Shown here: positions 5,254 through 38,347 of the stretch, one piece after another
Layout: each line of letters begins with the position of its first letter
Position numbering within the stretch: the first letter of the stretch is position 1
IMG/VR virus record: IMGVR_UViG_3300045988_156947
Span: 1 to 39,198 of that record
Reading direction: 5' to 3' (one strand)
DNA length: 39,198 bases
From: a virus
Notes under the pieces: generated by a model
The model's database searches: none
Told to the model about the DNA's origin: nothing
The model's input: only the letters and a program-made list of their open reading frames with translations
Program-made: the position numbers and the translations under genes

Positions 5254-6351
5254 ATGAAATGCCCGAATTGCAAGAGCGAGCTGCCCGACGAGCTGCATTT
5301 TATATACTGCGGCTACTGCGGCGCACGGCTCGTCCGCGAGAAACAAAAGAAGAACGATATAAGGATACCCTCGCCGAGAAAGCGCGGGCAAAGGTGGTAT
5401 ATAGATTTGCGGCGCGAGGGTGTGACGGTCATTGAGGACACCGAAGCCGAAGCAATAGCAAAAGCAAAAGCCATTCGCGCGGGCTTTATTAAAGCCGAGC
5501 AGAAGCACCCACCGCTGACGCTGCGGCAAGCGATAGATAAATATATAAGCGACCGCGACAACGCCCTCTCGCCCGCCACCATACGCGGCTACTACACTAT
5601 CCAGCGCAACGCCTTTGCCGATGTGATGGACCATGATATCCACGAGGTCGGCAACTGGCAGGCAGTCGTTAACCGTGAAGCAGGGCGCGTTTCGGCAAAA
5701 ACCTTGCAGAACGAATGGCGGCTTGTAAAAACGGTGTTGCAGAAAAACAAAATTGATTTCGATGTCACATCGCTGCCTCAGGTGATACGCAACGAATTAC
5801 CATGGCTTGATTATGGTCAGATAAAGATATTCCTCGAAGCCGTGCACGGCGCCCCTTGTGAGCTGGGGGCATTGTTCGCGCTTCACGGTCTGCGGCGTTC
5901 CGAACTCCTTGCATTAACACCGGATAAAATACAAGATGGGCGAATATTGGTTTATGGTAGTGCAGTTGTTGACAAAACCGGAAAGCTCGTTATCAAGTCC
6001 GAAAACAAGAACATTACTTCGCGGCGCGAAGTTGACATTATGATACCGCGGCTTGCCGAACTGCTTGCTGAGAGCACTACGCCACCGGGCACGCCGTATA
6101 TCCCGTTCAATCACAATACACTGCGCAAACAAATAAACCGCATTTGCGAACAAAACGGGCTGCCGCTGGTCGGCGTTCACGGTCTGCGGCGCAGCTTTGC
6201 GTCACTGGCATATCATCTCGGTTGGTCGGAACGCCAAACCATGAAAACAGGCGGCTGGGCAGATTTCAAAACCGTGCACAACATTTATGTGAAGCTTGCC
6301 GATGCCGATGAAAAAAGCGATATAAACCGCATGAAGGCGTTCTTCAATTGA
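5254..6351 (+). CDS. int: Tyrosine integrase with N-terminal zinc ribbon
   Basis: GGGAGATAAAA RBS. MKCPNCKSELPDELHFIYCGYCGARL zinc ribbon. Catalytic-type motifs LHGLRRSELLAL, VHGLRRSFASLAY, GGW...HNIYVK. Confidence 0.9.
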   Translation: MKCPNCKSELPDELHFIYCGYCGARLVREKQKKNDIRIPSPRKRGQRWYIDLRREGVTVIEDTEAEAIAKAKAIRAGFIKAEQKHPPLTLRQAIDKYISDRDNALSPATIRGYYTIQRNAFADVMDHDIHEVGNWQAVVNREAGRVSAKTLQNEWRLVKTVLQKNKIDFDVTSLPQVIRNELPWLDYGQIKIFLEAVHGAPCELGALFALHGLRRSELLALTPDKIQDGRILVYGSAVVDKTGKLVIKSENKNITSRREVDIMIPRLAELLAESTTPPGTPYIPFNHNTLRKQINRICEQNGLPLVGVHGLRRSFASLAYHLGWSERQTMKTGGWADFKTVHNIYVKLADADEKSDINRMKAFFN

Positions 6352-8171: not shown

Positions 8172-11100
8172 TTATTTTTTGTAAAGCGAGTAATAAAGCG
8201 CGTTCTTCTGCTCGGTCGTAAGGGACTTGAGAGAGTAGATGTACCGCTGTACTCTCTTTTTCTTCAAGCCCGAAACGGTCTTTCCGCTTGCGTCCTTGCC
8301 GCTTGCATTATTGTAGAACTCGTAGACATCGAGCGTGACGGTGTCGGGTACTTTCACGCGCTGCGCTCTTTCGAGCATATCGCCGAGCTGACAATTGCCG
8401 TTCTCCGTGGTCATGTATTCGCGCACCTTTTCGACAAGCTTCTTGCCCGAGTAGCCGCCGCCAATCAAACCGCGCACCTTTTCGGCGTTGCTGAAATTGC
8501 CGTTGCCGTCGGTGTCGGCAGATTGCAGATATTGCGAGTCAAGGAAATACTCAGCAGTCTTGCGGGGGTTGTTCTCAGCGAGTTTTATCCACGAACTAAC
8601 ATTCGCTTCTTCGCCCCTGCCGACGATGCCACGAGATTTAAGGAATTCCATCTTTGCCTCAGTGCGAGACGCCTTCGCAAGGTCAGCCAAAGCGTCAGCC
8701 TTTTGGTCGGCGCTCAAATTACTATATGCGGAGCTGTTCATGAATTGTGAATACAGTTCCTCGGTACGCTTGCCCGCCGTCCGCAAATACTGTTGCCGCT
8801 CCTCATAAGTCATGGCGTATGAGCTGCCGCCATAGTCGATTTTTGTCGGAGCGGTTTTGTCAGGGTACATATCAACTCGTGATGTCTCGTTTTTAATGCG
8901 TTCCATCTCCTTGCTGACATCGCGCTTGGTGTAGGTGTTTAACCCAGCGGGGTTTACCATGGCGTTTAATACGTTGGAGAGCGTAGAGCCTCCATACTTC
9001 TTCTCATCGCCGAATGGATCAAGTTTGACCGGCAACGTTTCTCTGAGCCCTGGCAGTGAATTCTTCGCGTTGTCCATGAGGTTTTCGCCGAGGCTGTCAC
9101 CTGAATACACATCTCTGTAATATGGGTCTATGCCTCTTGCGAGCTGCCGGAAAACATTCGGGATGACCGAGCTCGTTGCGGTCTTTACAAACATTTCGGC
9201 GAGAGCTTCGCCGAAGTCCTGCTTATACTTAATCGTGTTGACAGCAAGCGTCTGTATATTCTGAATAACGGGCAGCTCTGCGGCGCTTTCAAGCAGCGCA
9301 TTGAACGAGGCGGATGCCTTGTCGCCGAACGTTGTGTCTTCGTCCCACGTTGACACGATAGTGCCGAGCGCCATGATGGAGTTCACCGGCTCAAAGCGGG
9401 ATAGATCGAGCAGTTCGTCGCCGTTCCTCCACTCCGTACTCTCTCCGGCAAGAGCCCTCGACAGTGCAGATATATTTAGCTGTGTACCGGCGATGCCCTC
9501 GGCAGCGTTAAGTGCGGCAATATCGGGGTCGTTCTCGTCATCAGCCCTGCGCAGCAAGCCCGCTGCGGATATTGCGGCAAATAGGGCTATCCCCGCAGTG
9601 CCTGTCGCGCCGCGCCCCATGTGCTGTACTGCCTGGGCCTGTCTGCTGTGGTTTGGTTTCCCGCTCCTTTTCGCGTTATACACAACGCTGCACGCTTCGG
9701 CAAAGCCTCTCGCAAAGCCGATAGGAGTATAGTCTACTGCCGTTGATACGAGGTTTCCCGCAACTCTGGTAAACGGCGCAACCATGTCGCCAACGCCAAA
9801 GGAGCCGACCTTATAGTCTTTTTCCCTGCCCTTAATACGCTTGCCGCTGTCGCCCACGCCGATAACATTAAGCCCATCATGTACTCCGCCCAGCATTGTT
9901 GCGAGCCATGAGTCATTTTGAAATGTGCGATATTTAGCTATCTTATCGGCGTAATTTTCGGCATAATCCGCATCGGCGTCTACAACCTTGCCTTCGGCAA
10001 TAAGCCGCTCCATAGCCGCTTTGTGTCTCCCACTGGCAAAACCTTTTGCGATTTCGTCAGGCAATACCATGCCGTACTTCTGATTTCGCTCGAGGACGTG
10101 CAAAACGCGGTCAAATATATTGCCGTTAGCTTTAAATGTGTACCCTGTGTTTTGATATCGGCTATCTGCGCCCATGTCTACATCAAGAGCTATCTCCGCT
10201 ATCGTTCTGTTCAATGCCGTCCGCGCGGCTTTCCATCCCTCGGCATCAAATATGCCCTTGTCCGCGGCTACGCTTCGCGTGCCGGTCATGCTGCTCATAA
10301 TTTGGTCGGCGAGCGCCGAGCCGTTCATTGCAACAGTGTCAATAACAGAGAACACAGAGTTGCCGGAAACGTTCACGAGCTTCGTTTTCGGGTTAGACAG
10401 CATCGCAAGCATTTGGATGCACTTCATCTTTTTGCCCACATCGGCAGAATATACTTGATCGTTCCCGACCTGAGCAAGGGAGTTGTACGCGAGCGCCTGC
10501 AAATCCTCGCCGCTGAGAGCGTTGAGCGATTTTTCAACCATCGACCTCGTGATTTCTGCGCGCTTGCTCCGAATGGTCGCCCAGTTGAGCACCCCGCGCT
10601 GTTCCCCTATTTCCATTATGGTGCGCGTCAGGTCTAAACGCCCTTGTTCGGTGTTCGGGTTCGAGTTTTCAAGAAGTGCTTGCCATCTGACAACCTGTCG
10701 TACCGCGTCATAGCGCTCCTGTTCGCTAAGGTTTTCGTTTTCGATTATGGCGCTAAGAGCTGTATCGCCCGCCGCCGCTCCCGAGTCCTCGCTTTCACGC
10801 GTCCACTTCGCAAGCGATTGTATGACCTGTCCGGCATTGGTCATATGTGCAGCCTTCGTATGTGCGATAAGAGCCCTCGTCTCGGCAAGCTCGTTGTACT
10901 CGCTTATGCTCATATTCGGGTCGTTGAGCCCATCTTCAAGTTGCCGCGTTATCTCTCTCGTAGCAATTTCGGCAAGGTCGGTATCCTCCGCTGTCCACTC
11001 CTGTTTTTCAAGGAGCCATTCCGTAACGGCGCTTATTCCGTCCTCTTGCGTCAGTTGGTCGAACAAAGACTGTGCGCGGCTCTGCGTTGTACCTTCGTGC

Positions 11101-13205
11101 TTGACTTCGTACTGGAAATAAGGGTTATCTGCCTCCATTCCGTAGTCGGCGACACTCTCAGGGTCATATGAGCGCTCAATGGTATTTGAGCGATAGCGCG
11201 ACGTATTGAGCTCGCGGTTTTCCGTAAATCCGAGCTCTGCCGCGCCTGTGCCCTTGGGGAGATTGGATTGCTCTGCTTCAAGCGCCGTAGTCAAAGTTTG
11301 TTCGTTGCGGGGGTTGACATCAGCAGTCTCCTGTGATACAGTGTTACTAACAGCAACCCTCGCTGCGTGTCCGGGCGTGACGCTTGGGGCATTATTGCCA
11401 TAGGCGGACGAGGGGGCTGTTTTTTTTGCGCCATTTTTCGACATATAGGCAGAAACTATGTAGGTCGTTTTCTTTGCGGTATCCGGCACGGCTTCAATTA
11501 CATAGTATGTGCCGTTCACGGCTTTTTCAAATACTACGGTGCGAGCCCTTCCGTGCTTCCCGTTTGGCTTAACAGTCACATACGCCTTTGTCGTCCCGCC
11601 GTCCTTTGACGAGTCGTAATTGTCAATGACCCACTGTATGCGTCCAATATCATTTATATCGCGCATAGTTTGATCTGCGAGCCCGTTCTCCCCGTGGTCT
11701 TTGAGGATATGAGCCACCTGCCGAGCTTCAATGACGGTTTTATTGCCGGAAACATCCACGCCCGTGATACGCTTAATGTCCTTCGCCGCTCGGTCTGATA
11801 CTGGTTTCAGTTCATATCGGGCGTTTTGTTTTGTTATCCGTTTTGATGCTACGTCACTAACGAATTTCGTAAGCCCCTCGTCAACGGCTGACTGATATTC
11901 GTCTATCACCCTTTGCTCAACTGCGGTGTGTTCGCTCGGGTTAGTGTTGACGACAGTGCTCTCATCCTGCCCCGCTGTATCGCTGCGTGTGCCGCTCTCT
12001 GCGGCTACCATGTCCGCTATTACTCTTGAAGCGCTGCGCCGTCTTGGCTTGGTCTCTCGCTCTCGTTCTTCCTGCCGCTGCTGTGCGTTCTCTGCCTTGT
12101 ACTGTCCGCTTATAACATTTGTTCCAGCTCCGACAAGACCGAGCGCCGCGCCGATAATGTAGTCCTTTGCCATCTCCTCAGCGTCAAAGTCGTTGCCAAT
12201 GGTAGACCAGTCACCATTGCCGTCGTCGAGCTTGAGTATTCTGTCTGCTATCGGGTTGAGAATATCCGAAAGGACTTCCTCCAAGCCTTCCTCGTTCGCA
12301 CCCACGATAACCTTGAGCGCTGTTCTGCCGGCGTCCGTTTTCGCAAGCTTGTTTACTATTCCGTTTACAAGACTTTCATTGCGAATAATCCCCTTGCCAT
12401 AAGCAACGTGCGAAACCGCGCCGAAGAGTTTTTCGGTCATTATTTCTATCGCCGCGCTTTTAAGACCGGTGACGAGCTGAGTATCTAAGTCTTTTCCCGC
12501 AAGCCTCGCCTCATGCGACGCACCACCGGCTGCACGAGCGCCCATCATTGCAAGACCGCTGCCGGGAAGAACGGCGTTCATGACAGCATCGCCGGCAAAC
12601 TGCGTTGCGGCGATCCCGAAGTCTACCATGCCCTGACCGAATTTGCCGAGTCCCGCCTTTGCGCTCTGCTCATAATCATAGGCGGTCTGCTGCAATCTGT
12701 CTGCTCTGTCAAAGGCTTTCTGTCCCGCTCCGGCAAGCTTTACCGCGCGTTCGTCAAAGTCTTTTCGGCTGTCCTCGCTCTGCTTCTTAAGACCGCCCTC
12801 GCGTGTGTTGATGTCCTCGCCCTGCAACGAAGCCTCGCGCCCCGCTCTGAGCCTTGCACTGTCTGCCTCGTCTCTTGCTCTGGTCTGCGCGTCCTTCTCA
12901 TCGAGCAGACCAAACAGGTTTGATAACGACGCTCCCGCACCGTATATAGCCGCGTTAACGGTTTTGTCAAAGCGTGTGGGATTAGACGCGCCGTAGTCTC
13001 CCGCGCCCATTGCGTTTATCTGACCGGGCTTGCGCTCCTCCTCTTTCTTTTTGCCGTTCGTGAGCGAGCCGTAGTTGAATGTAACATCCGCGGCTTTGCT
13101 TTTGCCTGTGCCCTTGACAAGTACGGCGTGACCGTTGGCATCGACCGCGGGCTTAGTATCGCCTATCTCCTTGCGCACATCGGCTATAATTTTATCAACA
13201 TTCAT
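8172..13205 (-). CDS. Giant 1677-aa virion-associated (internal/ejected, polyvalent-type) protein
   Basis: Uninterrupted ORF with a GAGG RBS, coupled to the upstream gene. Gly-rich hydrophobic segments near the N-terminus. Embedded HILKDHG nuclease-like module. Long helical region. EF-hand-like loop DTDGNGNFSNAE. Confidence 0.85.
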   Translation of the reverse strand: MNVDKIIADVRKEIGDTKPAVDANGHAVLVKGTGKSKAADVTFNYGSLTNGKKKEEERKPGQINAMGAGDYGASNPTRFDKTVNAAIYGAGASLSNLFGLLDEKDAQTRARDEADSARLRAGREASLQGEDINTREGGLKKQSEDSRKDFDERAVKLAGAGQKAFDRADRLQQTAYDYEQSAKAGLGKFGQGMVDFGIAATQFAGDAVMNAVLPGSGLAMMGARAAGGASHEARLAGKDLDTQLVTGLKSAAIEIMTEKLFGAVSHVAYGKGIIRNESLVNGIVNKLAKTDAGRTALKVIVGANEEGLEEVLSDILNPIADRILKLDDGNGDWSTIGNDFDAEEMAKDYIIGAALGLVGAGTNVISGQYKAENAQQRQEERERETKPRRRSASRVIADMVAAESGTRSDTAGQDESTVVNTNPSEHTAVEQRVIDEYQSAVDEGLTKFVSDVASKRITKQNARYELKPVSDRAAKDIKRITGVDVSGNKTVIEARQVAHILKDHGENGLADQTMRDINDIGRIQWVIDNYDSSKDGGTTKAYVTVKPNGKHGRARTVVFEKAVNGTYYVIEAVPDTAKKTTYIVSAYMSKNGAKKTAPSSAYGNNAPSVTPGHAARVAVSNTVSQETADVNPRNEQTLTTALEAEQSNLPKGTGAAELGFTENRELNTSRYRSNTIERSYDPESVADYGMEADNPYFQYEVKHEGTTQSRAQSLFDQLTQEDGISAVTEWLLEKQEWTAEDTDLAEIATREITRQLEDGLNDPNMSISEYNELAETRALIAHTKAAHMTNAGQVIQSLAKWTRESEDSGAAAGDTALSAIIENENLSEQERYDAVRQVVRWQALLENSNPNTEQGRLDLTRTIMEIGEQRGVLNWATIRSKRAEITRSMVEKSLNALSGEDLQALAYNSLAQVGNDQVYSADVGKKMKCIQMLAMLSNPKTKLVNVSGNSVFSVIDTVAMNGSALADQIMSSMTGTRSVAADKGIFDAEGWKAARTALNRTIAEIALDVDMGADSRYQNTGYTFKANGNIFDRVLHVLERNQKYGMVLPDEIAKGFASGRHKAAMERLIAEGKVVDADADYAENYADKIAKYRTFQNDSWLATMLGGVHDGLNVIGVGDSGKRIKGREKDYKVGSFGVGDMVAPFTRVAGNLVSTAVDYTPIGFARGFAEACSVVYNAKRSGKPNHSRQAQAVQHMGRGATGTAGIALFAAISAAGLLRRADDENDPDIAALNAAEGIAGTQLNISALSRALAGESTEWRNGDELLDLSRFEPVNSIMALGTIVSTWDEDTTFGDKASASFNALLESAAELPVIQNIQTLAVNTIKYKQDFGEALAEMFVKTATSSVIPNVFRQLARGIDPYYRDVYSGDSLGENLMDNAKNSLPGLRETLPVKLDPFGDEKKYGGSTLSNVLNAMVNPAGLNTYTKRDVSKEMERIKNETSRVDMYPDKTAPTKIDYGGSSYAMTYEERQQYLRTAGKRTEELYSQFMNSSAYSNLSADQKADALADLAKASRTEAKMEFLKSRGIVGRGEEANVSSWIKLAENNPRKTAEYFLDSQYLQSADTDGNGNFSNAEKVRGLIGGGYSGKKLVEKVREYMTTENGNCQLGDMLERAQRVKVPDTVTLDVYEFYNNASGKDASGKTVSGLKKKRVQRYIYSLKSLTTEQKNALYYSLYKK

Positions 13206-13222
13206 GTTGCTACCTCACCGGC

Positions 13223-13939: not shown

Positions 13940-13969
13940 ATATGCACTTCCTTTCAGAACGGCGGGGTT

Positions 13970-14149
13970 TTACGCCCCGCCTGTTTTCTCGTGCTGTGTG
14001 CCGAAGTAAAACGCAATGACCATGAGCGCGACATTGTCCACAGCATCGGCGTTAATAGTTCCCGTCACGGCGAGATATGCCCAGACGGCCAGCACGATAA
14101 GTGTCACGATTGTTTTAACCTTTATAAGGTTTGCAAGATTTTTAAGCAT
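13970..14149 (-). CDS. Holin candidate (59 aa, two TM helices)
   Basis: GAGGAGG RBS before the internal ATG 14149. IVTLIVLAVWAYLAVTG and VALMVIAFYFG helices. Adjacent to the endolysin gene. Confidence 0.65.
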   Translation of the reverse strand: MLKNLANLIKVKTIVTLIVLAVWAYLAVTGTINADAVDNVALMVIAFYFGTQHEKTGGA

Positions 14150-14159
14150 ATGTACCTCC

Positions 14160-14393
14160 TCAGTGATGGTGATTTCGCATTTCTGCTTCAAGGTCAGATA
14201 TTCTATGGTTTGCCACCTTTATCTGCTCCTCGACTACAGGCATACGGCGGGCGAAGTTGTTGTGCTCCCTGACTTCTCGCGTCAGCTCGTCAACTCGCGT
14301 CTGCACGACCGCCTGTGACTTGCTGTTGCTTATAAGCACGCCTATTAGCGTGAGCACGCCGGTTATAATGGCGACAATTATGCTATCGCCCAT
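14160..14393 (-). CDS. Holin-like / lysis accessory protein (N-terminal TM plus coiled coil)
   Basis: IIVAIITGVLTLIGVLISN helix, then RVDELTREVREHNNFARRMPVVEEQIKV. Follows the endolysin stop directly. Confidence 0.55.
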   Translation of the reverse strand: MGDSIIVAIITGVLTLIGVLISNSKSQAVVQTRVDELTREVREHNNFARRMPVVEEQIKVANHRISDLEAEMRNHHH

Positions 14394-14397
14394 AAGT

Positions 14398-15201
14398 TCA
14401 CTGTACCTCCACGATTACCTTCAACCGCTTCTTGAATTCCTCAAACAGCTCGTCCTTGTCGATGCTGTTGTCAGGGAGCGCCGCGATGAGTGCCTTACAC
14501 ATACGCAGACACACTATCTGATCGCGCAGCATATCCAGCGTAATATCAAAGCCGCTTGCGTCGCCGTTACCCTTGAGCGCTCCGATTTCTACGAGCTCTT
14601 TTGCTTCCGCCTGTGCCCACGCGGGCATTTCTTCGATTGTCTTGTACCTTGCCATATCGTCATCCTCCTGTTTTTCGGCAAGCCGCCTGTTCACTTCGGC
14701 AGCTATCTCGCCGTGTCTGTCATAAAGCCACTGTCCGGGGCAAGCCTTGTTTTCGTAGTCGCGGTGCACCGTCATATTGCACCCATTCTTGTGGTTTACG
14801 CGGTCTGCCTTGCTGGTGCTCCACACGAGTTTCTTAATGCCGTTGCGCTCGCATATATCCGTCACGAGATCGAGCAGCGCCTTGTATGCCCTGTCCCTCA
14901 CTGCGTAGGGATGTTTGTTATCGCACGCCACCTCAATGGTCACGGCTCGACGGTCATTGTAACTGTTAGAGGTCGCCCAGCTACAGTCACGCTCCTCGAC
15001 ATACATCCCTACCCTTCCGTCGGGACCGATGCCGTAGTTTGCACTTGCCCGCTTTGTCTGAAATAGCTTGCCAAGTGTTTCAACTGCCGCCTGAGCCGCC
15101 GAGCAGTGTATCGTGATAGTGTCTATTGCGTGTCCACCTCGGCTTGACCTCATTGGGCTTATCCGAGTATACGACACAAGGGGAGAGTTTGTATATTCCA
15201 T
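14398..15201 (-). CDS. Endolysin, N-acetylmuramoyl-L-alanine amidase (Amidase_2/PGRP type)
   Basis: GGAGGAGG RBS before the internal ATG 15201 (MEYTNSPLVSYTRISP...). IDTITIHCSAAQ and HRDYENKACPG motifs. Extra C-terminal domain. Confidence 0.85.
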   Translation of the reverse strand: MEYTNSPLVSYTRISPMRSSRGGHAIDTITIHCSAAQAAVETLGKLFQTKRASANYGIGPDGRVGMYVEERDCSWATSNSYNDRRAVTIEVACDNKHPYAVRDRAYKALLDLVTDICERNGIKKLVWSTSKADRVNHKNGCNMTVHRDYENKACPGQWLYDRHGEIAAEVNRRLAEKQEDDDMARYKTIEEMPAWAQAEAKELVEIGALKGNGDASGFDITLDMLRDQIVCLRMCKALIAALPDNSIDKDELFEEFKKRLKVIVEVQ

Positions 15202-15251
15202 ATCAGTCCTCCTCCAAAAGCCCTGAATATACTTTCTCATCGTCTTCCATG

Positions 15252-16091
15252 TCATTCGCTCCTTACTGTGTAGTTTCCCGATTGCAGCTCGGTTTTCAGT
15301 GCGGCGGTGTCTGCTTTTACCCATGCGCCGCTCACTTTTTTATAAGCCGTCTGAGCCTGCGCATAAGCCCCGCCGGTCTTGACATACATTCCGGTGCCGT
15401 CGATAGTCGCTTTGGCGTAGAGCGTAAGGTCTGCGGCGGCTGCGGCGTAGGTCTGCTCCGTGCTCACGAGCTGCGTGCACGCTGCATCCGAATACCAACC
15501 GTGCCACGTAGCGCCGGTCTTGAGCGTCGCCGTAAATGTCACGCTCTCGCCGTCATAGGCTTCAACTTTGTCAACACTCGCCGCCGTGACACCGTTACCG
15601 GCTACATTTGCCGAACAGGTGTATTCGTTGAAATACAGCGTGAATATTGCGTCACCGGCATTAACTATCGTTGTGCCGGATGACCGAAAATGCACCTGTA
15701 TCGTCGATGCGCGGGTTGCCGATGTAATGTGTGCATCCGTTATGCCGGTAACAGGGTAATCGGTGTCGTCCGTTGTCAGGTTCGTTCGGCAGTATTCGCC
15801 GCCGTTAAATGTGATCCAGCCCTGATTTTTATCCGATGTTGAGCCGTACTGCCTTACCGCATTTGCAAGCGTGATATCTGCCATATACGGCTTTGCGGCA
15901 ACGGTTGGGAACAGATGTTCCTTTGCCGATGAGTTTAATTCGCCATAGCCGGATTTTGCGCCGTTCAGGTACAGTCTGAACGCCTTTTTGCCGTGACCTG
16001 AAACAGTTTCGTTAAGCCTTAATGTATGCGCAGTACACAGACTGTCAACGTTGCTGGCGGTTATGTGCAGTGTTTTTGCTACGGTCTGCAT
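15252..16091 (-). CDS. Tail fibre / receptor-binding protein candidate with a Listeria-Bacteroides-repeat-like C-terminus
   Basis: Internal ATG 16091 (MQTVAKTLHI...). C-terminal TFTATLKTGATWHGWYSDAACTQLV...DLTLYAKA resembles the GWY...LYAKW repeat. Last gene of the fibre cassette. Confidence 0.55.
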   Translation of the reverse strand: MQTVAKTLHITASNVDSLCTAHTLRLNETVSGHGKKAFRLYLNGAKSGYGELNSSAKEHLFPTVAAKPYMADITLANAVRQYGSTSDKNQGWITFNGGEYCRTNLTTDDTDYPVTGITDAHITSATRASTIQVHFRSSGTTIVNAGDAIFTLYFNEYTCSANVAGNGVTAASVDKVEAYDGESVTFTATLKTGATWHGWYSDAACTQLVSTEQTYAAAAADLTLYAKATIDGTGMYVKTGGAYAQAQTAYKKVSGAWVKADTAALKTELQSGNYTVRSE

Positions 16092-19549: not shown

Positions 19550-21748
19550 CTATTTGACATTGTTCGCATATGCGATGTTTATCTGCGCTCCTGTTATCGT
19601 CATGCGCGAGGTCGTCGAAAGTCGGAGCTTGCTTGTTGTGAGCTTGCGCAGTTTGAGCCTTGTGCGCATTGTAGGCTTTACCGATCCAACGGTCGGCGTA
19701 GCAAGGTCGGCACTTCGGGCATCTCCTGTGTCGGAGGACACGCCTACTGTGAAAGCCTTGCCGTTTTCGGGCTTTATGTTCACCCATACTTCGGGGGAAT
19801 ACTTGAGGACATTCGGTTTGTCATAGTCAATGTCGCCGCTCTCAAACACAGCTTCAGAGTCGGGCTGCGCGTCATAGATCATTGTTGCAAGCCCGCCGTC
19901 GCTGAGGAGACAGAAGTTTTTCCCCTCGTGGCCGCATATCTGCGCAACATCAAAGCCTCCGTATTCATACCATGCGTTTGCGTCAATATTCTGCACAAGC
20001 GCCGAGCCGCCGTAGATGCAGTAAAACTCATGCCTGTACTTGTCATAGTGCATGACACTCTTTGCAAGGTCAAAGCCGCCGAGCGTGCGCTGTACCCTCT
20101 GCGATATGCGTTCGGCGTTTCGCTGGTCGTATGTGATGTTGCCGGTGTTTGATGTCGGTCGCCACTCGTATATATCACAGCCGTCAAGAGTGCGTATTCG
20201 GTTTTCGACGAGTATCGCTTGTGCGCTCGGTGCACAGCCTATGTCCTTGTTGACGGAGGTTATATAAAATCCCGTCGTTGCCGAGCCGTCAGCAAGCGTC
20301 ATAACGCTCGCATATATACTGTATGCCTCGTTATCCTTAAACGCTAAAAGCCTGTTGTAGTGCTTTACAAGTGCCGTTAACGGCGCGTTCGTCGCGCCTA
20401 TCTCGGCTTCGTTCAGGTCGGGGAAGTATTCCGCGGACGCTCTGCCTGTTTCCGTTATGCCGCTGTAATAGGTCTTACAGCTTCCGTCTCCGTACAGGAA
20501 TATGCGGTTATCCTGAGCGCCGTTGAACATCTCGGTATATTTCATTTGCAGAAGGTCGTCTCGCGGCGTTCTCTTGCGGTACTCTACGCGCAGCGTTGCA
20601 CCCGCTTCGGGCGGAAGTCTTGATATAGACAGCACCTTTGTTTCGGCATTATAGCTGTACTCGCCCGCCGCGACATTGACGAGCGTGCCATTGGCGGTCT
20701 TGTAATGCACCTTGAGGATAACGAGTTTCGCGTCACCGTCACGGACATATACCGCATAGTCTGTTTCATATGCGATTGTCTGAGACTTCTCGGGATTCAT
20801 TATCGAGTAGACGATTTCGACATTGTCCGTTCCTGACGGAGGGTTTTCCTTGAGCATGACCGTACCGTCAAACTGCGACCATCCTTCGGCTTTCACACCG
20901 CCCACATATACCTCCGAGATAAGCGCATCTGCCTCAAGGACTTTGAATGACTTTGTGTCGCCTGTTGCCGAATACCGAGCCTTGCGGTAAAGCGAAAGAT
21001 TGTTAACTCGCTCAAGCGTCGTGCCTGAGCCGTTAGGCTCGCAAGCGGTGAGAACACAGGGCGTATAGCCTTGCACTTCCGTTGCGGTCGCACCGTCATA
21101 GACGATGTAATGCCCGCCGCCGAGCATATACACCTTGTCGTCAAAGCCGAACACTTCAACATGGTCGGCGCTCGCAAAGTCCGTGAACGCAGCAAGCTTG
21201 TAAAGCGAAAAATACTTGTCGCTTTCAGACACTCTGAATAAGCCGCTCCCAGTAACCGCGAGGAGGCTGACATAGCCGTTAAAATATCCACTCCACAGCG
21301 TCAGCACTTTCCCCGCAGGCTGCATTTCGTCGCCGTAGACCCTGTTGTACATCGGGCTATATCCCGTGAGCGCATAGACTTTTTCGTTTTTCACGAAAAA
21401 GCTTTTGCCCAAGTACGGGAGCATCGGCGTTGCGAATAGATCCGTCACCGTGCATATCGGCTCGCCGACAACCGAAAACTTGCCGCCTGTTTCCTCGATG
21501 TCCCCGTAAAGAGTCAGGGGCGCACTCTCGGACACGACAAAGTCGACAGGCGCCGATGTCTCGCTGACCATCTTCTTGCTGAGAACAGGGCGCGGGGTCA
21601 GCTCGCCCGCGTCCGTCACGCGGAAGTTGACGAGCTTCGATGCCTCCCCCGCCTTGAGGTGCGTTTCGCCGCTGTCGCTCTGATTGAGCCCAAGGAATTT
21701 CTTTATGCTGTATGTTGCGCGGTTTATGTTCGCATTAAGCTTTGCCAC
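19550..21748 (-). CDS. Large tail structural protein (732 aa; nozzle/tubular-B-like by size and position only)
   Basis: GTG 21748 is preceded by GAGGTGG and lies just after the upstream stop. The longer track ORF would overlap the upstream gene by 44 nt. No motif recognised. Confidence 0.55.
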   Translation of the reverse strand: MAKLNANINRATYSIKKFLGLNQSDSGETHLKAGEASKLVNFRVTDAGELTPRPVLSKKMVSETSAPVDFVVSESAPLTLYGDIEETGGKFSVVGEPICTVTDLFATPMLPYLGKSFFVKNEKVYALTGYSPMYNRVYGDEMQPAGKVLTLWSGYFNGYVSLLAVTGSGLFRVSESDKYFSLYKLAAFTDFASADHVEVFGFDDKVYMLGGGHYIVYDGATATEVQGYTPCVLTACEPNGSGTTLERVNNLSLYRKARYSATGDTKSFKVLEADALISEVYVGGVKAEGWSQFDGTVMLKENPPSGTDNVEIVYSIMNPEKSQTIAYETDYAVYVRDGDAKLVILKVHYKTANGTLVNVAAGEYSYNAETKVLSISRLPPEAGATLRVEYRKRTPRDDLLQMKYTEMFNGAQDNRIFLYGDGSCKTYYSGITETGRASAEYFPDLNEAEIGATNAPLTALVKHYNRLLAFKDNEAYSIYASVMTLADGSATTGFYITSVNKDIGCAPSAQAILVENRIRTLDGCDIYEWRPTSNTGNITYDQRNAERISQRVQRTLGGFDLAKSVMHYDKYRHEFYCIYGGSALVQNIDANAWYEYGGFDVAQICGHEGKNFCLLSDGGLATMIYDAQPDSEAVFESGDIDYDKPNVLKYSPEVWVNIKPENGKAFTVGVSSDTGDARSADLATPTVGSVKPTMRTRLKLRKLTTSKLRLSTTSRMTITGAQINIAYANNVK

Positions 21749-21752
21749 AGGT

Positions 21753-22163
21753 TCACCACCTCGCGTAACTTGTCGGGTCAACGCAGCCGTAAACATCCTC
21801 TATCGGCTCAAAGCCGTGAGGGATGCGCCGCGCATTGAGAAGCCCCTCCTCGTACTGCTGCTGCCACGAGTTAGCCCGAAGCGGGTCTTCGTCGAGGTAC
21901 AGCGCCGCCGCGAGCCCATAGGGAATAACGCCGAGCAGTATCGTCTGGTCAAAGCCTGTTATTACATCCGTGGGCTCTTCGATAGGCTGCCAATTTGAGC
22001 GCGGGTCGCCGTCGTATGCTTCGCTGTACTGGTAGCACTGCGACAACAGCGCGTTTATGATAGGAACTGCCCTTGCCTTATAGCTCAGGTCGTCATCCGT
22101 TTCGTTCATTATTGCCAGCGCAGACTGATACACTTTGTCTGCGCTTATAAAATCTACTGCCAT
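21753..22163 (-). CDS. Head-tail adaptor / head completion candidate (136 aa)
   Basis: First gene after the capsid gene and its attenuator hairpin. Assignment is by position only. Confidence 0.45.
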   Translation of the reverse strand: MAVDFISADKVYQSALAIMNETDDDLSYKARAVPIINALLSQCYQYSEAYDGDPRSNWQPIEEPTDVITGFDQTILLGVIPYGLAAALYLDEDPLRANSWQQQYEEGLLNARRIPHGFEPIEDVYGCVDPTSYARW

Positions 22164-22226: not shown

Positions 22227-23288
22227 TTAGGCTTTAACTGCGTCGTATGCAGTGATGGGGCTGGACAGCATTCCGGTCTTGGAAGCATAGGCGCGGAAAG
22301 TGGTGTCTGCGCTTATGGCAACTGCTGCCGAGTAAACCTTTGCGGTGTCGGAAGTTTTGGGATTGGTGCCGTCGGTGGTGTACTTGATGGTCGCGCCGCT
22401 GGTGGTGCTCTCGATGGTCACCTTGTTGCTCGCATTGGAGAATGTAGGTGCCGCGCACACTGCGTCAGCGTCGGAAGCATAGACATAAATGCCGTCTGCC
22501 TTCTGCGCGAGAACGAAGGAGTCGTAACGGACAAGACCTTCGAGGAGAACGCCCGCAATGCCCGGGGGATTCTCGTGCGCGCGCAGGGTCTTAAGCTTGG
22601 TGGGGTCTGCCGTAGCCTGCTTGTGCTTGATGAGGAACACGACGCCCTTCGGCATGAAAGTGGGCGGAATAGCGACAACAGGAGTGCCGTTAATGTCGCC
22701 TATCTGACGCTTGCTGACGCGCTCGCCGAGACCGTCAGCCTTGAATTCGTCTGCAAGGCGATACTCAATAGCGATGTCGGAGCGCACATACATGACTCTG
22801 CCCTCGAAAGGAACGCCGGCATCGTCAAGTGCGGTCAGACCGGTGAGCATCGCCTTGACGACGGTCGCTTTACCGAGTGCGGTCGCATTGAGCGTGCCGA
22901 GACCCGCGCCCTCTGCCCAAGTGTGGAGACGGTACTTGTCCATTTCGGGAACATAGGCATAGTCCCACATCTGCTTGAGGTAGTTGGATGCCTTCTTGAG
23001 GAAGAGCTGGTCCTGAGTGTTGGTGACGTCGATGGTCTCGGAAAAGCTGCGCTTGCGGCGGAGCTGATAGGTGTTGACCTCGTCCTCGACCTCGTGAGGA
23101 GTACCAAAGCGGTTTGCGGTCTTGGTCGCGTCGTAGTCGTTGAGTTTGCCGGTGTTGATGGTGTAGACCTTGATGGCGTTTACGCCCTCCCACTCGTAGG
23201 AGTTGCCGCACCATGCGTCGGTAAAGGAATTGTGCTTGTATCTCTCGTCAAGCTTGGGAGAGAATTTGAGTGCAAGATTTATTGCCAT
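22227..23288 (-). CDS. Major capsid protein with C-terminal Ig-like (chitobiase/hexosaminidase C-terminal-type) domain
   Basis: GGAGG RBS. Position after the scaffold gene. C-terminus ATIKYTTDGTNPKTSDTAKVYSAAVAISADTTFRAYASKTGMLSSPITAY fits the IxYTTDGSxP...Y...I...T.I.A.A motif. Confidence 0.75.
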   Translation of the reverse strand: MAINLALKFSPKLDERYKHNSFTDAWCGNSYEWEGVNAIKVYTINTGKLNDYDATKTANRFGTPHEVEDEVNTYQLRRKRSFSETIDVTNTQDQLFLKKASNYLKQMWDYAYVPEMDKYRLHTWAEGAGLGTLNATALGKATVVKAMLTGLTALDDAGVPFEGRVMYVRSDIAIEYRLADEFKADGLGERVSKRQIGDINGTPVVAIPPTFMPKGVVFLIKHKQATADPTKLKTLRAHENPPGIAGVLLEGLVRYDSFVLAQKADGIYVYASDADAVCAAPTFSNASNKVTIESTTSGATIKYTTDGTNPKTSDTAKVYSAAVAISADTTFRAYASKTGMLSSPITAYDAVKA

Positions 23289-35986: not shown

Positions 35987-36643
35987 TTATCCCCACTGGT
36001 CAGCCATTGCTTTGGCTATGCCGGGGAAGGTTTTGCTTCTGATTTTTGCCGTGCGAGGATCATTCCATCGCAGGATCTTGCCTCGCTCATCTCTTGCACA
36101 ATCCGCGCCTGCTCCGACGCTGTATCCCCCCTGCAAAATCTCTCCAGCATCCACAATGTTGGTCGGGGACAAAGCAGGGAGCCCTTTAAGCCACAGACAA
36201 GTCTTTTTCCTGGCATTATGCCCAAACTCATACGGCTGGATAATGCAATCCGGTTTTCGGTAGTACGATGACATTTTGCCTACTGGATTTTCGACGCAGA
36301 TTTTTGGGATATCTGCTTCTGCAAAATGGAGGAAAAACGCCGCGCTCTCAAACCGCAAATATAGCGGTTTCCGCCCCTCCGAAAACCATCTCTCGCCGGA
36401 CGCTGCCAAATGCGTGCACGGCGGGTGAGCTATCAGCATATCCCACTTGCCCACATCATGCTCAACGCCGTCCATGGTAATAATTACCCCCCCATTCAGG
36501 GCAACGAGCGCATCGCCGAGTATGTGCCACTCAGGATGCCCGCCCGACGGCTCGATTATGTCGCAGCTGTACGCCTCGTGCCCCTTTGCGCGGAAAGCCT
36601 TGCACACAGTCTGGCTCTCCTCACAGGCTATCAGAACTTTCAT
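35987..36643 (-). CDS. Cytosine-5 DNA methyltransferase-like protein
   Basis: IAHPPCTHLA (PC motif IV) and CVENPVG (ENV-type motif VI). N-terminus MKVLIACEESQ replaces the canonical FxGxG. Confidence 0.55.
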   Translation of the reverse strand: MKVLIACEESQTVCKAFRAKGHEAYSCDIIEPSGGHPEWHILGDALVALNGGVIITMDGVEHDVGKWDMLIAHPPCTHLAASGERWFSEGRKPLYLRFESAAFFLHFAEADIPKICVENPVGKMSSYYRKPDCIIQPYEFGHNARKKTCLWLKGLPALSPTNIVDAGEILQGGYSVGAGADCARDERGKILRWNDPRTAKIRSKTFPGIAKAMADQWG

Positions 36644-36677
36644 GCAGTATGTCCTCCATTCAAAAATCTCCCTTAAA

Positions 36678-37376
36678 CTAATTGATCCACCTAATCACGG
36701 TCTCGCCGGTATACCCCTTCTGCCAGACAAACCACGCATAAGCCACCGCAGATCCGCCACCGGCTTTCATCTTCTCGAAATCGCCGTTTTTCGCGCACAG
36801 CAGCCTGCCGGATGCTACATACACGCACTTGGGGGGATATTTCTCAAACAGTGCCCTGCGAGCTTTGCCCTCAAGGAATTGCAGTTTAAGAAACATGCAC
36901 ACCTTGCAGCCATCAGCCACCGTGTCTATTGCGTGCTCCACAAACTCTTTGGCGTACTTGTAGGGCGGGTTGGTGACTATATCGCCGTGAAAATGTACGT
37001 TTTCCTTGAGGAAATCGACACCTCCACAGCCATAGCCCCGATCTATCAGGTCGGTTGCTTTAACGATGTGCCCGCGCTTGCGGAGCACTTCGGCAAGATG
37101 CCCTTCACCGCAGGCGCACTCCCATATAGCGGGTGAGAGGCTTTCGACTTCACAGAGTAGTTCGGCGGCTTTAGGCTCGGTCGCATAATAGTCATGGGCC
37201 TCCCGTTCGTTTTCTGTATGGTTGGAGGCTCCGAGGGTCTTGTAGATGCTGTTGCCGTTGCCTATCCAATCCGCAGGCTTCACACTCAATACACCCCCCT
37301 GAACACATTCTCCGAGCCGTTGCCGGTAAAACCACAGATACCCACTTACGTAACTCCCTTCATAAAGCAGCCCCAA
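36678..37376 (-). CDS. N6-adenine DNA methyltransferase (NPPY)
   Basis: WECACGEGHL (SAM-binding-like) and IVTNPPYKYAKEF. The start is uncertain; it overlaps the upstream gene by 31 nt. Confidence 0.7.
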   Translation of the reverse strand: MGLLYEGSYVSGYLWFYRQRLGECVQGGVLSVKPADWIGNGNSIYKTLGASNHTENEREAHDYYATEPKAAELLCEVESLSPAIWECACGEGHLAEVLRKRGHIVKATDLIDRGYGCGGVDFLKENVHFHGDIVTNPPYKYAKEFVEHAIDTVADGCKVCMFLKLQFLEGKARRALFEKYPPKCVYVASGRLLCAKNGDFEKMKAGGGSAVAYAWFVWQKGYTGETVIRWIN

Positions 37377-37843: not shown

Positions 37844-38347
37844 TCAGTACGCCTCCCGAAAGTGATTTGTCTCCCCATCGCCGGTGAACCAGCAGTATGT
37901 ATCAGGCAGCTCCCTTGTAACCGCCGCGCCCTGCTTCTCCATGCTCCAGCGCGTGAGCACATCGAGCGCCACCGCACGAAGCTCGTCCCACACAGGAAAG
38001 TGCGGACTGTAGCCGTAAAACTGCCCCGACTGGCTCACTACGCCGACGATGGTCTCGGGGAAACGCGGATCGTCCACGCGATTGAGCACGCACCACACGC
38101 ACTTGCGCTGATTGTCCACCGTGCACCCTCTCGCCTCGCCGTATAGCATCTGCGCGAGCGCCGTGACATCAGCCTCGGTAAAATACAGCTCGTATTCAGG
38201 CTCTTTCACCTCCACCACGCAAAGCCCCTTTGTGTCCACCTTCGGCGGCTCAGGCTCGGCGGGCTTGTCCAGCGCACAGCTTATCAGCACAAGTAGCGCC
38301 ACGATTGTCATGCACAAAAACGCTGCCATGATTTCAAATCTCCTCAT
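37844..38347 (-). CDS. SleB/CwlJ-type cell wall hydrolase with lipoprotein-type signal peptide
   Basis: IVALLVLISCALD lipobox. LAQMLYGEARGCTVDNQRKCVWCVLNRVDDPRFPETIVGVVSQSGQF fits the Hydrolase_2 pattern. The start may be ATG 38329. Confidence 0.75.
   Translation of the reverse strand: MRRFEIMAAFLCMTIVALLVLISCALDKPAEPEPPKVDTKGLCVVEVKEPEYELYFTEADVTALAQMLYGEARGCTVDNQRKCVWCVLNRVDDPRFPETIVGVVSQSGQFYGYSPHFPVWDELRAVALDVLTRWSMEKQGAAVTRELPDTYCWFTGDGETNHFREAY

Follow-up and report, generated by a model that had tools for sequence, protein, structure and literature searches.

The stretch of viral DNA analysed here (IMG/VR record IMGVR_UViG_3300045988_156947, positions 1 to 39,198; all 39,198 nucleotides (nt) are "the window" below) carries a very large gene that probably encodes an encapsidated ejection protein, a delivery frame holding a replaceable payload nuclease. 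The gene is one intact 5-kb open reading frame (ORF) of 1677 amino acids (aa), as a prediction made earlier from the sequence alone had it. Upstream of it, on the same strand, are the genes for TerL, a P22-type portal, the major head protein, fibre-like proteins and an Amidase_2 endolysin, library matches that establish the predicted placement after the fibre and lysis genes. Between TerL and the fibre-like genes stand the portal (a Pfam P22_portal match), a scaffold-sized protein, the major head protein and a 748-aa protein without a family match. Downstream, four small ORFs (80, 157, 123 and 75 aa) are followed by a converging tyrosine integrase (5254-6351), and the remaining window genes concern recombination, regulation and methylation. 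Searches of Pfam, PHROGs and NCBIfam found no match to tail tube, sheath, chaperone or tape-measure families anywhere in the window, in agreement with the predicted lack of preceding tube or chaperone genes.

The portal type, podophage relatives, host-joined contigs and bacterial genome bins together identify the element as a temperate, short-tailed (P22-portal) prophage of gut Oscillospiraceae/Clostridia. By portal, three podophages of Bacillus megaterium, Page, Pony and Palmer, are the closest cultured phages (30% identity), and the podophage morphology of Page is confirmed by transmission electron microscopy (TEM). Close relatives of the window are metagenomic contigs of 34-53 kb with identical gene order, some of them joined to host DNA. 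Scanning a genome collection with an alignment of the N-terminal module of the giant protein returned seven loci, in metagenome-assembled genomes of Oscillospiraceae, Clostridia or Eubacteriales and in one unclassified bacterial bin. The same scan with the whole giant protein found nothing, and a diverse alignment of giant proteins held no conserved stretch usable for it.

Directly upstream of the giant gene lies a gene for a 238-aa partner, and the two are closely linked in one operon without overlap. The original prediction called them translationally coupled; the linkage stands, with its 17-nt spacer and a Shine-Dalgarno sequence, and since the genes do not overlap the term is only loosely correct. 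The partner is 69% identical to the partner in a related locus (L004) and 35% identical to that in another (L022). Its N-domain (aa 1-150) accompanies the giant gene in both and in L021, where it is encoded upstream of that gene. Its homologue in phage Page is Page_18 (BLASTP E 9e-4, jackhmmer 7e-47), two genes before the 1679-aa LPD38 protein of Page and adjoining a virion-type lysin. The partner's C-terminus is SHOCT-like at 26.6 bits, just under the Pfam cut-off of 27, and neither the partner nor the giant protein has a match in PHROGs or NCBIfam.

A GC-rich hairpin at 13961-13981 (GGCGGGG...CCCCGCC) overlaps the stop codon of a 59-aa ORF about 20 nt before the partner gene. The idea that it terminates transcription ahead of the partner gene, after the lysis genes, was considered and rejected, as its T-run lies on the opposite strand only. 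Because the coding strand lacks a T-run at this hairpin, read-through from the late and lysis genes into the partner and giant genes is likely, judging from sequence. The hairpin may instead terminate antisense transcripts or act as an RNA-stability element.

Domain layout and cassette exchange

Homologue searches and pairwise maps divide the giant protein into five parts: a leader, an N-module, a cargo cassette, a C-scaffold and a tail (Table 1). The core of the N-module (aa ~150-385) carries the motifs LPGxGLAxMGxRAxG, TEKLFG and EEGLEEVLSD, which are conserved across the family. This core was recovered in 250 of 297 family proteins, with E306, E309, E310 and G352 invariant. Gly/Ala-rich hydropathy peaks at aa 83-101, 203-221, 349-367 and 1200-1218 account for the predicted Gly-rich hydrophobic segments, and the peptides quoted as examples lie where they had been placed.

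The N-module is 73% identical to the N-modules of 2317- and 2588-aa proteins that bear MuF_C with ART-PolyVal or PBECR5 and are named "PolyVal ADP-ribosyltransferase" or "nuclease" at source. As a separate observation, two proteins at this 73% identity in the N-module (P0042 and P0043) are only ~25% identical in the C-scaffold, and their gene is placed elsewhere in the genome. Such divergence between the two modules reflects either independent recombination of modules or much stronger constraint on the N-module.

The C-scaffold is marked by the motifs MLSNPKTxxxNxxGN, PFTRVAGNL, (E/D)Y(S/T)P, RGxTGTA followed by a hydrophobic helix, LEPxN and IPGLRETLP; RGxTGTA and its helix are conserved in the family alignment. 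The most hydrophobic segment of the protein, ATGTAGIALFAAISAAGLL, belongs to this conserved stretch and is a candidate membrane-inserting helix. The tail that follows is shared with P0012-type and other proteins. It contains the loop DTDGNGNFSNAE, which fits the canonical EF-hand pattern D-x-[DNS]-x-[DNS]-G-x(5)-[DE], as predicted. An EF-hand loop occurs within the last 260 aa of 38 of the 176 family representatives, compared with 0.5% of shuffled tails. In the AlphaFold2 model, DTDGNGNFSNAE forms a helix-loop-helix, and several relatives in BFVD are named "EF-hand domain-containing". The loop is thus real and recurrent; its role is a matter of speculation, and calcium binding is predicted from the pattern.

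Embedded in the cassette is a PBECR3 domain (E 2.6e-12, 47.1 bits against a Pfam cut-off of 30), which gives the predicted nuclease-like module a name. The domain is RNase-like, and RNase activity is predicted for it. Its region is 60% identical to that of another family protein (P0010), with which it has the motif HILKxHG in common.

Comparison of close relatives shows that the PBECR3 cassette is exchangeable between near-identical frames. Protein P0004 matches the window protein at 93% identity over aa 1-418 and 97% over aa 642-1677, and aa 419-641 are replaced in it by an unrelated module of ~265 aa without a Pfam match. In P0006, aa 594-1677 are kept at 93% and the N-part differs. The PBECR3 and P0004 cassettes each turn up again, at 30-60% identity, in many family members that differ in other respects. 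The replacement module itself (P0004 aa 415-705, locus L010) recurs at 40-60% identity in many family members, and by eye its stretch LDCYGEGLVTLYAQYGFVPVARV resembles an acetyltransferase core. An immunity gene co-varying with the cassette was sought and rejected: the downstream genes of 80, 157, 123 and 75 aa keep the same size and order beside both cassettes.

The same plan extends to the wider family. The whole 1677-aa protein has 672 homologues, and in many of them ART-PolyVal, MuF_C or PBECR5 is flanked by these N- and C-modules. Of 184 representatives, 137 follow the order N-core, insert, C-module, with inserts of 264-2829 aa and tails of 2-527 aa. Nineteen diverse members carry LPD3, zeta toxin, MuF_C, DdrB-ParB, PBECR3, ART-PolyVal or LPD23, and PBECR5 is also found on this frame among the homologues. 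All the domains carried by these nineteen members belong to the polyvalent-protein class (PMC5512222).

Table 1. Position of the giant gene, its protein segments and the adjoining genes within the window
Feature	Position	Strand	Remarks
Giant ORF, 1677 aa	8172..13205	-	ATG start, no internal stop
N-terminal leader, aa 1-52	13050..13205	-	common to close relatives only (BLASTP map)
N-module, aa 53-385	12051..13049	-	helical, Gly/Ala-rich hydrophobic segments
Cargo cassette, aa ~386-660	11226..12050	-	charged linker, PBECR3, Ala/Ser/Thr-rich linker
PBECR3 domain, aa 469-592	11430..11801	-	Pfam PF18812
C-scaffold, aa ~661-1525 (~860 aa)	8631..11225	-	family-conserved, mostly helical
Most hydrophobic segment, ATGTAGIALFAAISAAGLL, aa 1200-1218	9552..9608	-	Kyte-Doolittle 1.71 over 19 residues
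C-terminal tail, aa 1526-1677	8172..8630	-	helical; conserved end LTxEQKNALYYSLYKK
EF-hand-type loop, DTDGNGNFSNAE, aa 1564-1575	8481..8516	-	pattern match, between two predicted helices
Shine-Dalgarno sequence, GGTGAGG	13213-13219	-	within the 17-nt spacer, 7 nt before the giant-gene ATG
Partner gene, 238 aa	13223..13939	-	ends 17 nt upstream of the giant gene
Lysis cassette	13970..15324	-	Amidase_2 endolysin 14398-15324; 77-aa phrog_1863 protein 14160-14393; 59-aa ORF 13970-14149

The frame family, its gene context and its fold

The C-scaffold defines a very large family. A phmmer search with aa 881-1677 against 1.84 billion cluster representatives (50%-identity clusters) found 4074 clusters at E<=1e-3, of which 662 reach E<=1e-30; almost all of the matches fall on aa ~885-1525. 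The proteins range from 508 to 4450 aa, and among those listed (550-4450 aa) the module is always near the C-terminus. No Pfam (even at E<=10), PHROG or NCBIfam model matches it, and a sequence search of the PDB returned a spurious low-complexity match only. The conserved two-part frame of N-core and C-scaffold, which makes up ~70% of the protein's length, is absent from the standard domain libraries. One database entry stands apart: P0155 (1273 aa) joins Terminase_6N to a stretch 96-99% identical to parts of the frame family and is probably an assembly or gene-calling chimera.

In several relatives the giant gene is found with virion genes. In loci L001-3 (2317 aa) it is part of the virion module, where it is flanked by hub-sized and fibre-sized genes and the lysis genes follow. 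In L021 (1134 aa) it is the last virion gene before XhlA/amidase, and in the SU10-type podovirus L024 (1210 aa) it closes the virion module after a LysM protein. Two further loci, L004 and L022 (1488 and 1345 aa), show the post-lysis position of the window, with a homologous partner in front and an integrase behind. Because relatives have the gene within the virion module or as its last member, the post-lysis position is a lineage variant rather than a defining trait or the mark of a separate kind of gene.

Two C-scaffold proteins also occur in small elements that carry integrase, repressor and replication genes (L020 10001-13561, P0150; L025 10001-13987, P0133). The L020 element carries DnaB and a small terminase; that of L025 carries an IstB/DnaC-like gene, and its contig continues for 4 kb past the giant gene. 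These elements may be phage satellites with an injectable protein of their own.

An AlphaFold2 model of aa 881-1677, built on an alignment of 34 sequences, is mostly helical, with a predicted local distance difference test score (pLDDT) of 83 and a predicted template-modelling score (pTM) of 0.71, and it substantiates the long helical region of the original prediction. When this C-scaffold model was compared with BFVD by Foldseek, 51 matches were obtained at E<=1e-3, the best being polyvalent proteins of gut phages. The next matches are named "internal virion protein" and come from Pelagibacter phage Eyrgjafa (E 7e-15) and Synechococcus phages S-CBP3 (1e-10), S-CBP2 and S-RIP1, with a Foldseek probability of 1.0 and template-modelling (TM) scores of 0.45-0.49 (0.49 for S-CBP3). 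A further match is an unnamed "predicted protein" of cyanophage NATL2A-133.

The S-CBP3 gene follows two tail-tube genes and precedes a fibre gene, which is the position of T7 gene 16, and its relatives at this position are single, gp16-sized ORFs of ~1280 aa. In S-CBP3 itself (genes 0052 and 0053; L018 20265-24079) the annotation gives two genes, of 389 and 863 aa, both named "internal virion protein". More than 100 close relatives have one ORF of 1260-1340 aa instead, which points to a frameshift in the gp16-position gene or to its having been split in annotation. Profile comparison by hhalign aligns the C-scaffold collinearly with this cyanophage family over 290 columns, matching PFTRVxGN, (E)YSP, RGxTGTA with its hydrophobic helix, and LEPxN. 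By Pfam, the giant protein has no N-terminal SLT or other muralytic domain; T7 gp16 shows SLT in a like scan. An N-terminal SLT domain is not universal in the extended internal virion protein D (IVP-D) family.

Neighbouring genes add several observations in their own right. In the lysis cassette, the 59-aa ORF is read here as holin-like from the hydrophobic stretches in its translation. The amidase ORF and a 307-aa Listeria-Bacteroides-repeat protein, as listed, overlap by 73 nt (15252-15324); the 307-aa ORF is listed with a TTG start, and its real start is probably further downstream. Directly after the head genes, the 748-aa protein (19550-21796, minus strand) is without a match in Pfam, PHROGs or NCBIfam and by tblastn. 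Its place and size make it the likely tail hub or nozzle; its counterparts measure 656-734 aa in relatives and 730 aa in Page, where the counterpart is named "tail protein". The major head protein (22227-23288, minus strand) has a C-terminal CHB_HEX_C_1 / Fn3_assoc domain (aa 285-346) that looks like a built-in surface decoration or glycan-binding module. In the early region, two DNA methyltransferase ORFs are adjacent (35987-37376, minus strand), and a 167-aa protein (37844-38347, minus strand) gives weak endolysin-like or cell-wall-hydrolase matches; relatives carry a Hydrolase_2-like gene there.

Proposed delivery at infection and competing readings

Architecture, cassette exchange, synteny, the absence of long-tail genes and the fold resemblance to predicted internal virion proteins all support the reading of the giant protein as an ejection protein. 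It is favoured because the PBECR3 match exceeds the Pfam cut-off and PBECR-bearing polyvalent proteins among virion genes have been predicted to be packaged and injected (Iyer, Burroughs, Anand, de Souza and Aravind 2017, PMC5512222). It is also favoured because the C-scaffold model matches predicted models of gp16-position proteins, because relatives carry the gene inside the virion module, and because phi24B gp47, N4 gp50 and H66 gp60 offer precedents. From the likeness of the C-scaffold model, the virion-module synteny and these published analogues we infer the internal or ejected role that the original prediction proposed in combination with an effector role, including packaging, exit through the portal, ejection and conduit formation or membrane insertion. 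The RNase activity and its target are predicted.

The proposed course of events is as follows. The giant protein would be a late product of the operon that also holds the lysis genes and the conserved 238-aa partner, and a few copies would be packaged inside the head of the short-tailed, P22-portal temperate phage. At infection, it would leave through the portal and tail, before or with the DNA. The hydrophobic helices of the N-module and the C-scaffold, with its helix at aa 1200-1218, may then extend or line a conduit through wall and membrane. The PBECR3 cassette would thereby reach the cytoplasm and, in the first minutes, could cut host RNA (tRNA, rRNA or mRNA), blunting defence or shutting off the host. 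The EF-hand loop might couple release or refolding to the ionic change.

Several points weigh against this proposal. The whole protein has no megablast or tblastn match in 50,697 deposited phage genomes, and tblastn with the C-scaffold alone at E<=10 gives two weak matches there, both to uncultured Caudoviricetes. The N-module model is unreliable (pLDDT 46) and was set aside. Foldseek against the PDB, which presumably contains the deposited T7 ejectosome chains, yields no solved-structure match for the C-scaffold (best E 0.066, TM about 0.1). The BFVD targets are themselves predicted, their name "internal virion protein" derives from synteny, and structural scores of long helical proteins can be inflated.

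Profile comparisons point the same way. The hhalign match to the cyanophage gp16-position family is weak (probability 14-26%, E 7e-4 to 2e-3). With the C-module and N-core profiles, hhalign probability stays below 3% against T7 gp16, T7 gp15, N4 gp50 and Page gp20, and below 1% for T7 gp16 and N4 gp50. A hidden Markov model of 167 C-modules finds no match among the ORFs of S-CBP3, T7 and Page. In the stretches covered, the L020 and L025 elements contain no head or tail genes. Finally, the place between lysis cassette and integrase is also a site of lysogenic-conversion genes.

This last point leads to a different reading, in which the gene is not part of the virion and serves lysogenic conversion or competition. 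Such a "moron" or polymorphic-toxin-like gene would be expressed by the prophage or released at lysis, harming competitors or excluding phages. Its place near the integrase end of the prophage, where such genes accumulate, would be explained, as would the relatives in small non-structural elements and the toxin-like RNase cassette swapped between near-identical relatives, a pattern known from polymorphic toxins. We nevertheless consider it unlikely. No promoter or terminator sets the giant gene apart from the late genes: only spacers of 17 nt and about 30 nt, with ribosome-binding sites, intervene, and the hairpin lacks a T-run on the coding strand. In addition, no immunity-like gene changes with the cassette, the toxin-like domain is central rather than C-terminal, and homologues lie within virion modules. 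Were the gene a conversion gene after all, the cassette swapping would mark a prophage-carried toxin system.

A structural role on the outside of the particle or on the tail, for instance as a central fibre, a plug or a wall-penetrating device in which PBECR3 is an incidental passenger, is likewise improbable. The gene adjoins fibre genes in relatives, its counterpart in Page comes after a lytic protein of virion type that has SLT and NlpC/P60 domains, and the hydrophobic helices could act at the cell surface. However, the protein shows no beta-rich fibre, receptor-binding or muralytic domain, and its modelled part is almost wholly helical. The payloads of the family (ART, RNases, ParB nuclease and zeta kinase) have cytoplasmic targets, and the closest functionally named structural neighbours are internal virion proteins. 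An external tail protein thus fits poorly with an all-helical frame and enzymes that act in the cytoplasm.

A tape-measure or tail-length-determining protein of a long-tailed phage, suggested by large size, helices and Gly/Ala-rich hydrophobic segments, is effectively excluded by gene content and phage type, as the original prediction had also held: matches to tube, sheath, chaperone or tape-measure families are absent from the window and from six related contexts, the portal is of P22 type, the closest cultured relatives are TEM-verified podophages (the Page group), the gene follows the lysis genes, and a family of 508-4450 aa with inserted enzymes is unfit to serve as a ruler.

The ejection reading can be widened, more tentatively. 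The N-core and C-scaffold may form one widespread, unnamed delivery frame of short-tailed phages, distantly related to the gp16 ejectosome, that carries interchangeable injected effectors (RNases, ADP-ribosyltransferases, zeta kinases and ParB nucleases) across Gram-positive envelopes. If so, the turnover of cassettes between frames 93-97% identical would record an ongoing arms race, and the copies in integrase-replication(-TerS) elements would hint at satellites that fill helper capsids with an effector of their own. If the ejection reading itself is right, the window protein would be a natural device for injecting protein into gut Clostridia: its conserved frame would bring a payload from the capsid into the cell, its central slot would take different enzymes, and the cassette boundaries (about aa 386 and 660) could serve in the engineering of cargo for delivery by phage. 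Naming both frame modules would allow thousands of "hypothetical" giant phage proteins to be annotated, and the polyvalent-protein idea would be joined to the ejectosome of short-tailed phages. Early cleavage of host RNA would then be expected in infections by these uncultured gut phages.

Comparison with known systems

The nearest known class is that of the polyvalent proteins (PMC5512222). Like them, the window protein is giant and phage-encoded, bears a predicted RNase of the PBECR family and belongs to a virion or late-gene context with an integrase nearby; its relatives combine ART-PolyVal, MuF_C, PBECR5, LPD3, zeta toxin and DdrB-ParB. Unlike them, it has one recognisable effector domain, the remainder being the unannotated frame and the EF-hand loop, and its frame matches no LPD or other Pfam model. 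At least two disparate activities per polypeptide are seen in the relatives, and one catalytic-type domain is recognised in the window protein. The predicted label "polyvalent" accordingly holds for the family, through PBECR3 and the relatives' domains, but not for the range of effector domains within this protein. A MuF-type polymorphic toxin of temperate phages was also considered as a model and set aside: there is no MuF N-domain, a long distance separates the gene from that of the portal, and the RNase-like domain occupies the middle of the protein.

Experimental precedent comes from phi24B gp47 (2811 aa; LPD5, LPD1, LPD38 and MuF-C), which was detected in virions by mass spectrometry, is invisible in the cryo-EM map and is proposed by its authors to be an encapsidated ejection protein (bioRxiv 10.64898/2026.04.10.717836). 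It too is a giant polyvalent protein of a temperate podovirus for which the same combined role is proposed. The comparison is by description: phi24B has a Gram-negative host, and LPD38 and other domains of gp47 are undetected in the window protein.

Another group comprises T7 gp16 and the cyanophage and pelagiphage gp16-position proteins (S-CBP3_0053, Eyrgjafa), which are likewise large, helical and late-encoded in podoviruses; the BFVD models of the marine proteins resemble the predicted C-scaffold fold. In position the window protein agrees with IVP-D: the module is of podovirus type, and the giant gene comes after the fibre and lysis genes here, while in relatives it is internal to the virion module or closes it. 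In contrast to T7 gp16, with which it has no detectable sequence or solved-structure similarity, the window protein lacks a transglycosylase, belongs to a phage of a Gram-positive host and contains an inserted effector cassette.

N4 gp50 consists of three parts: an N-terminal one needed for injection, an enzyme in the middle and a C-terminal one needed for encapsidation. N4 gp50 and Pseudomonas phage H66 gp60, members of an extended internal-virion-protein family, join an IVP-D module to an intracellular enzyme (Hardies 2016, PMC4819975). The window protein resembles them in design, in that it pairs a candidate IVP-D-like module with a domain that would act inside the host. It differs in its payload, which is a predicted RNase rather than an RNA polymerase or methylase, and it has no detected sequence similarity to N4 gp50.

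Two systems are alike in gene position. Page gp20 (1679 aa, LPD38), accompanied by Page_19 and, two genes upstream, by Page_18, is nearly equal in size and is encoded last in the virion module, next to the lysis genes. It differs in preceding the lysis genes and following a virion lysin, and Page is lytic. The two giant proteins have no detectable similarity, and orthology on the basis of 1677 versus 1679 aa was rejected for want of sequence support, so Page gp20 is a positional analogue only. The other is found in prophages phi1 and phi4 of Clostridium clostridioforme LM41, which are predicted to be of podovirus type and carry an 8-kb ORF at the 3' end (PMC11318856). According to its authors, this ORF resembles LPD3-type polyvalent proteins and may help establish incoming DNA (PMC11318856). 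The likeness to the window, drawn by description only, is that of a very large ORF at the 3' end of a predicted podovirus prophage of gut Clostridia; the LM41 proteins differ in length (~2700 aa) and in their LPD3-type similarity.

Seen beside these systems, the window protein belongs to a class that is already known, and what the libraries lack is its two-part frame and the possible tie of that frame to gp16-position proteins.

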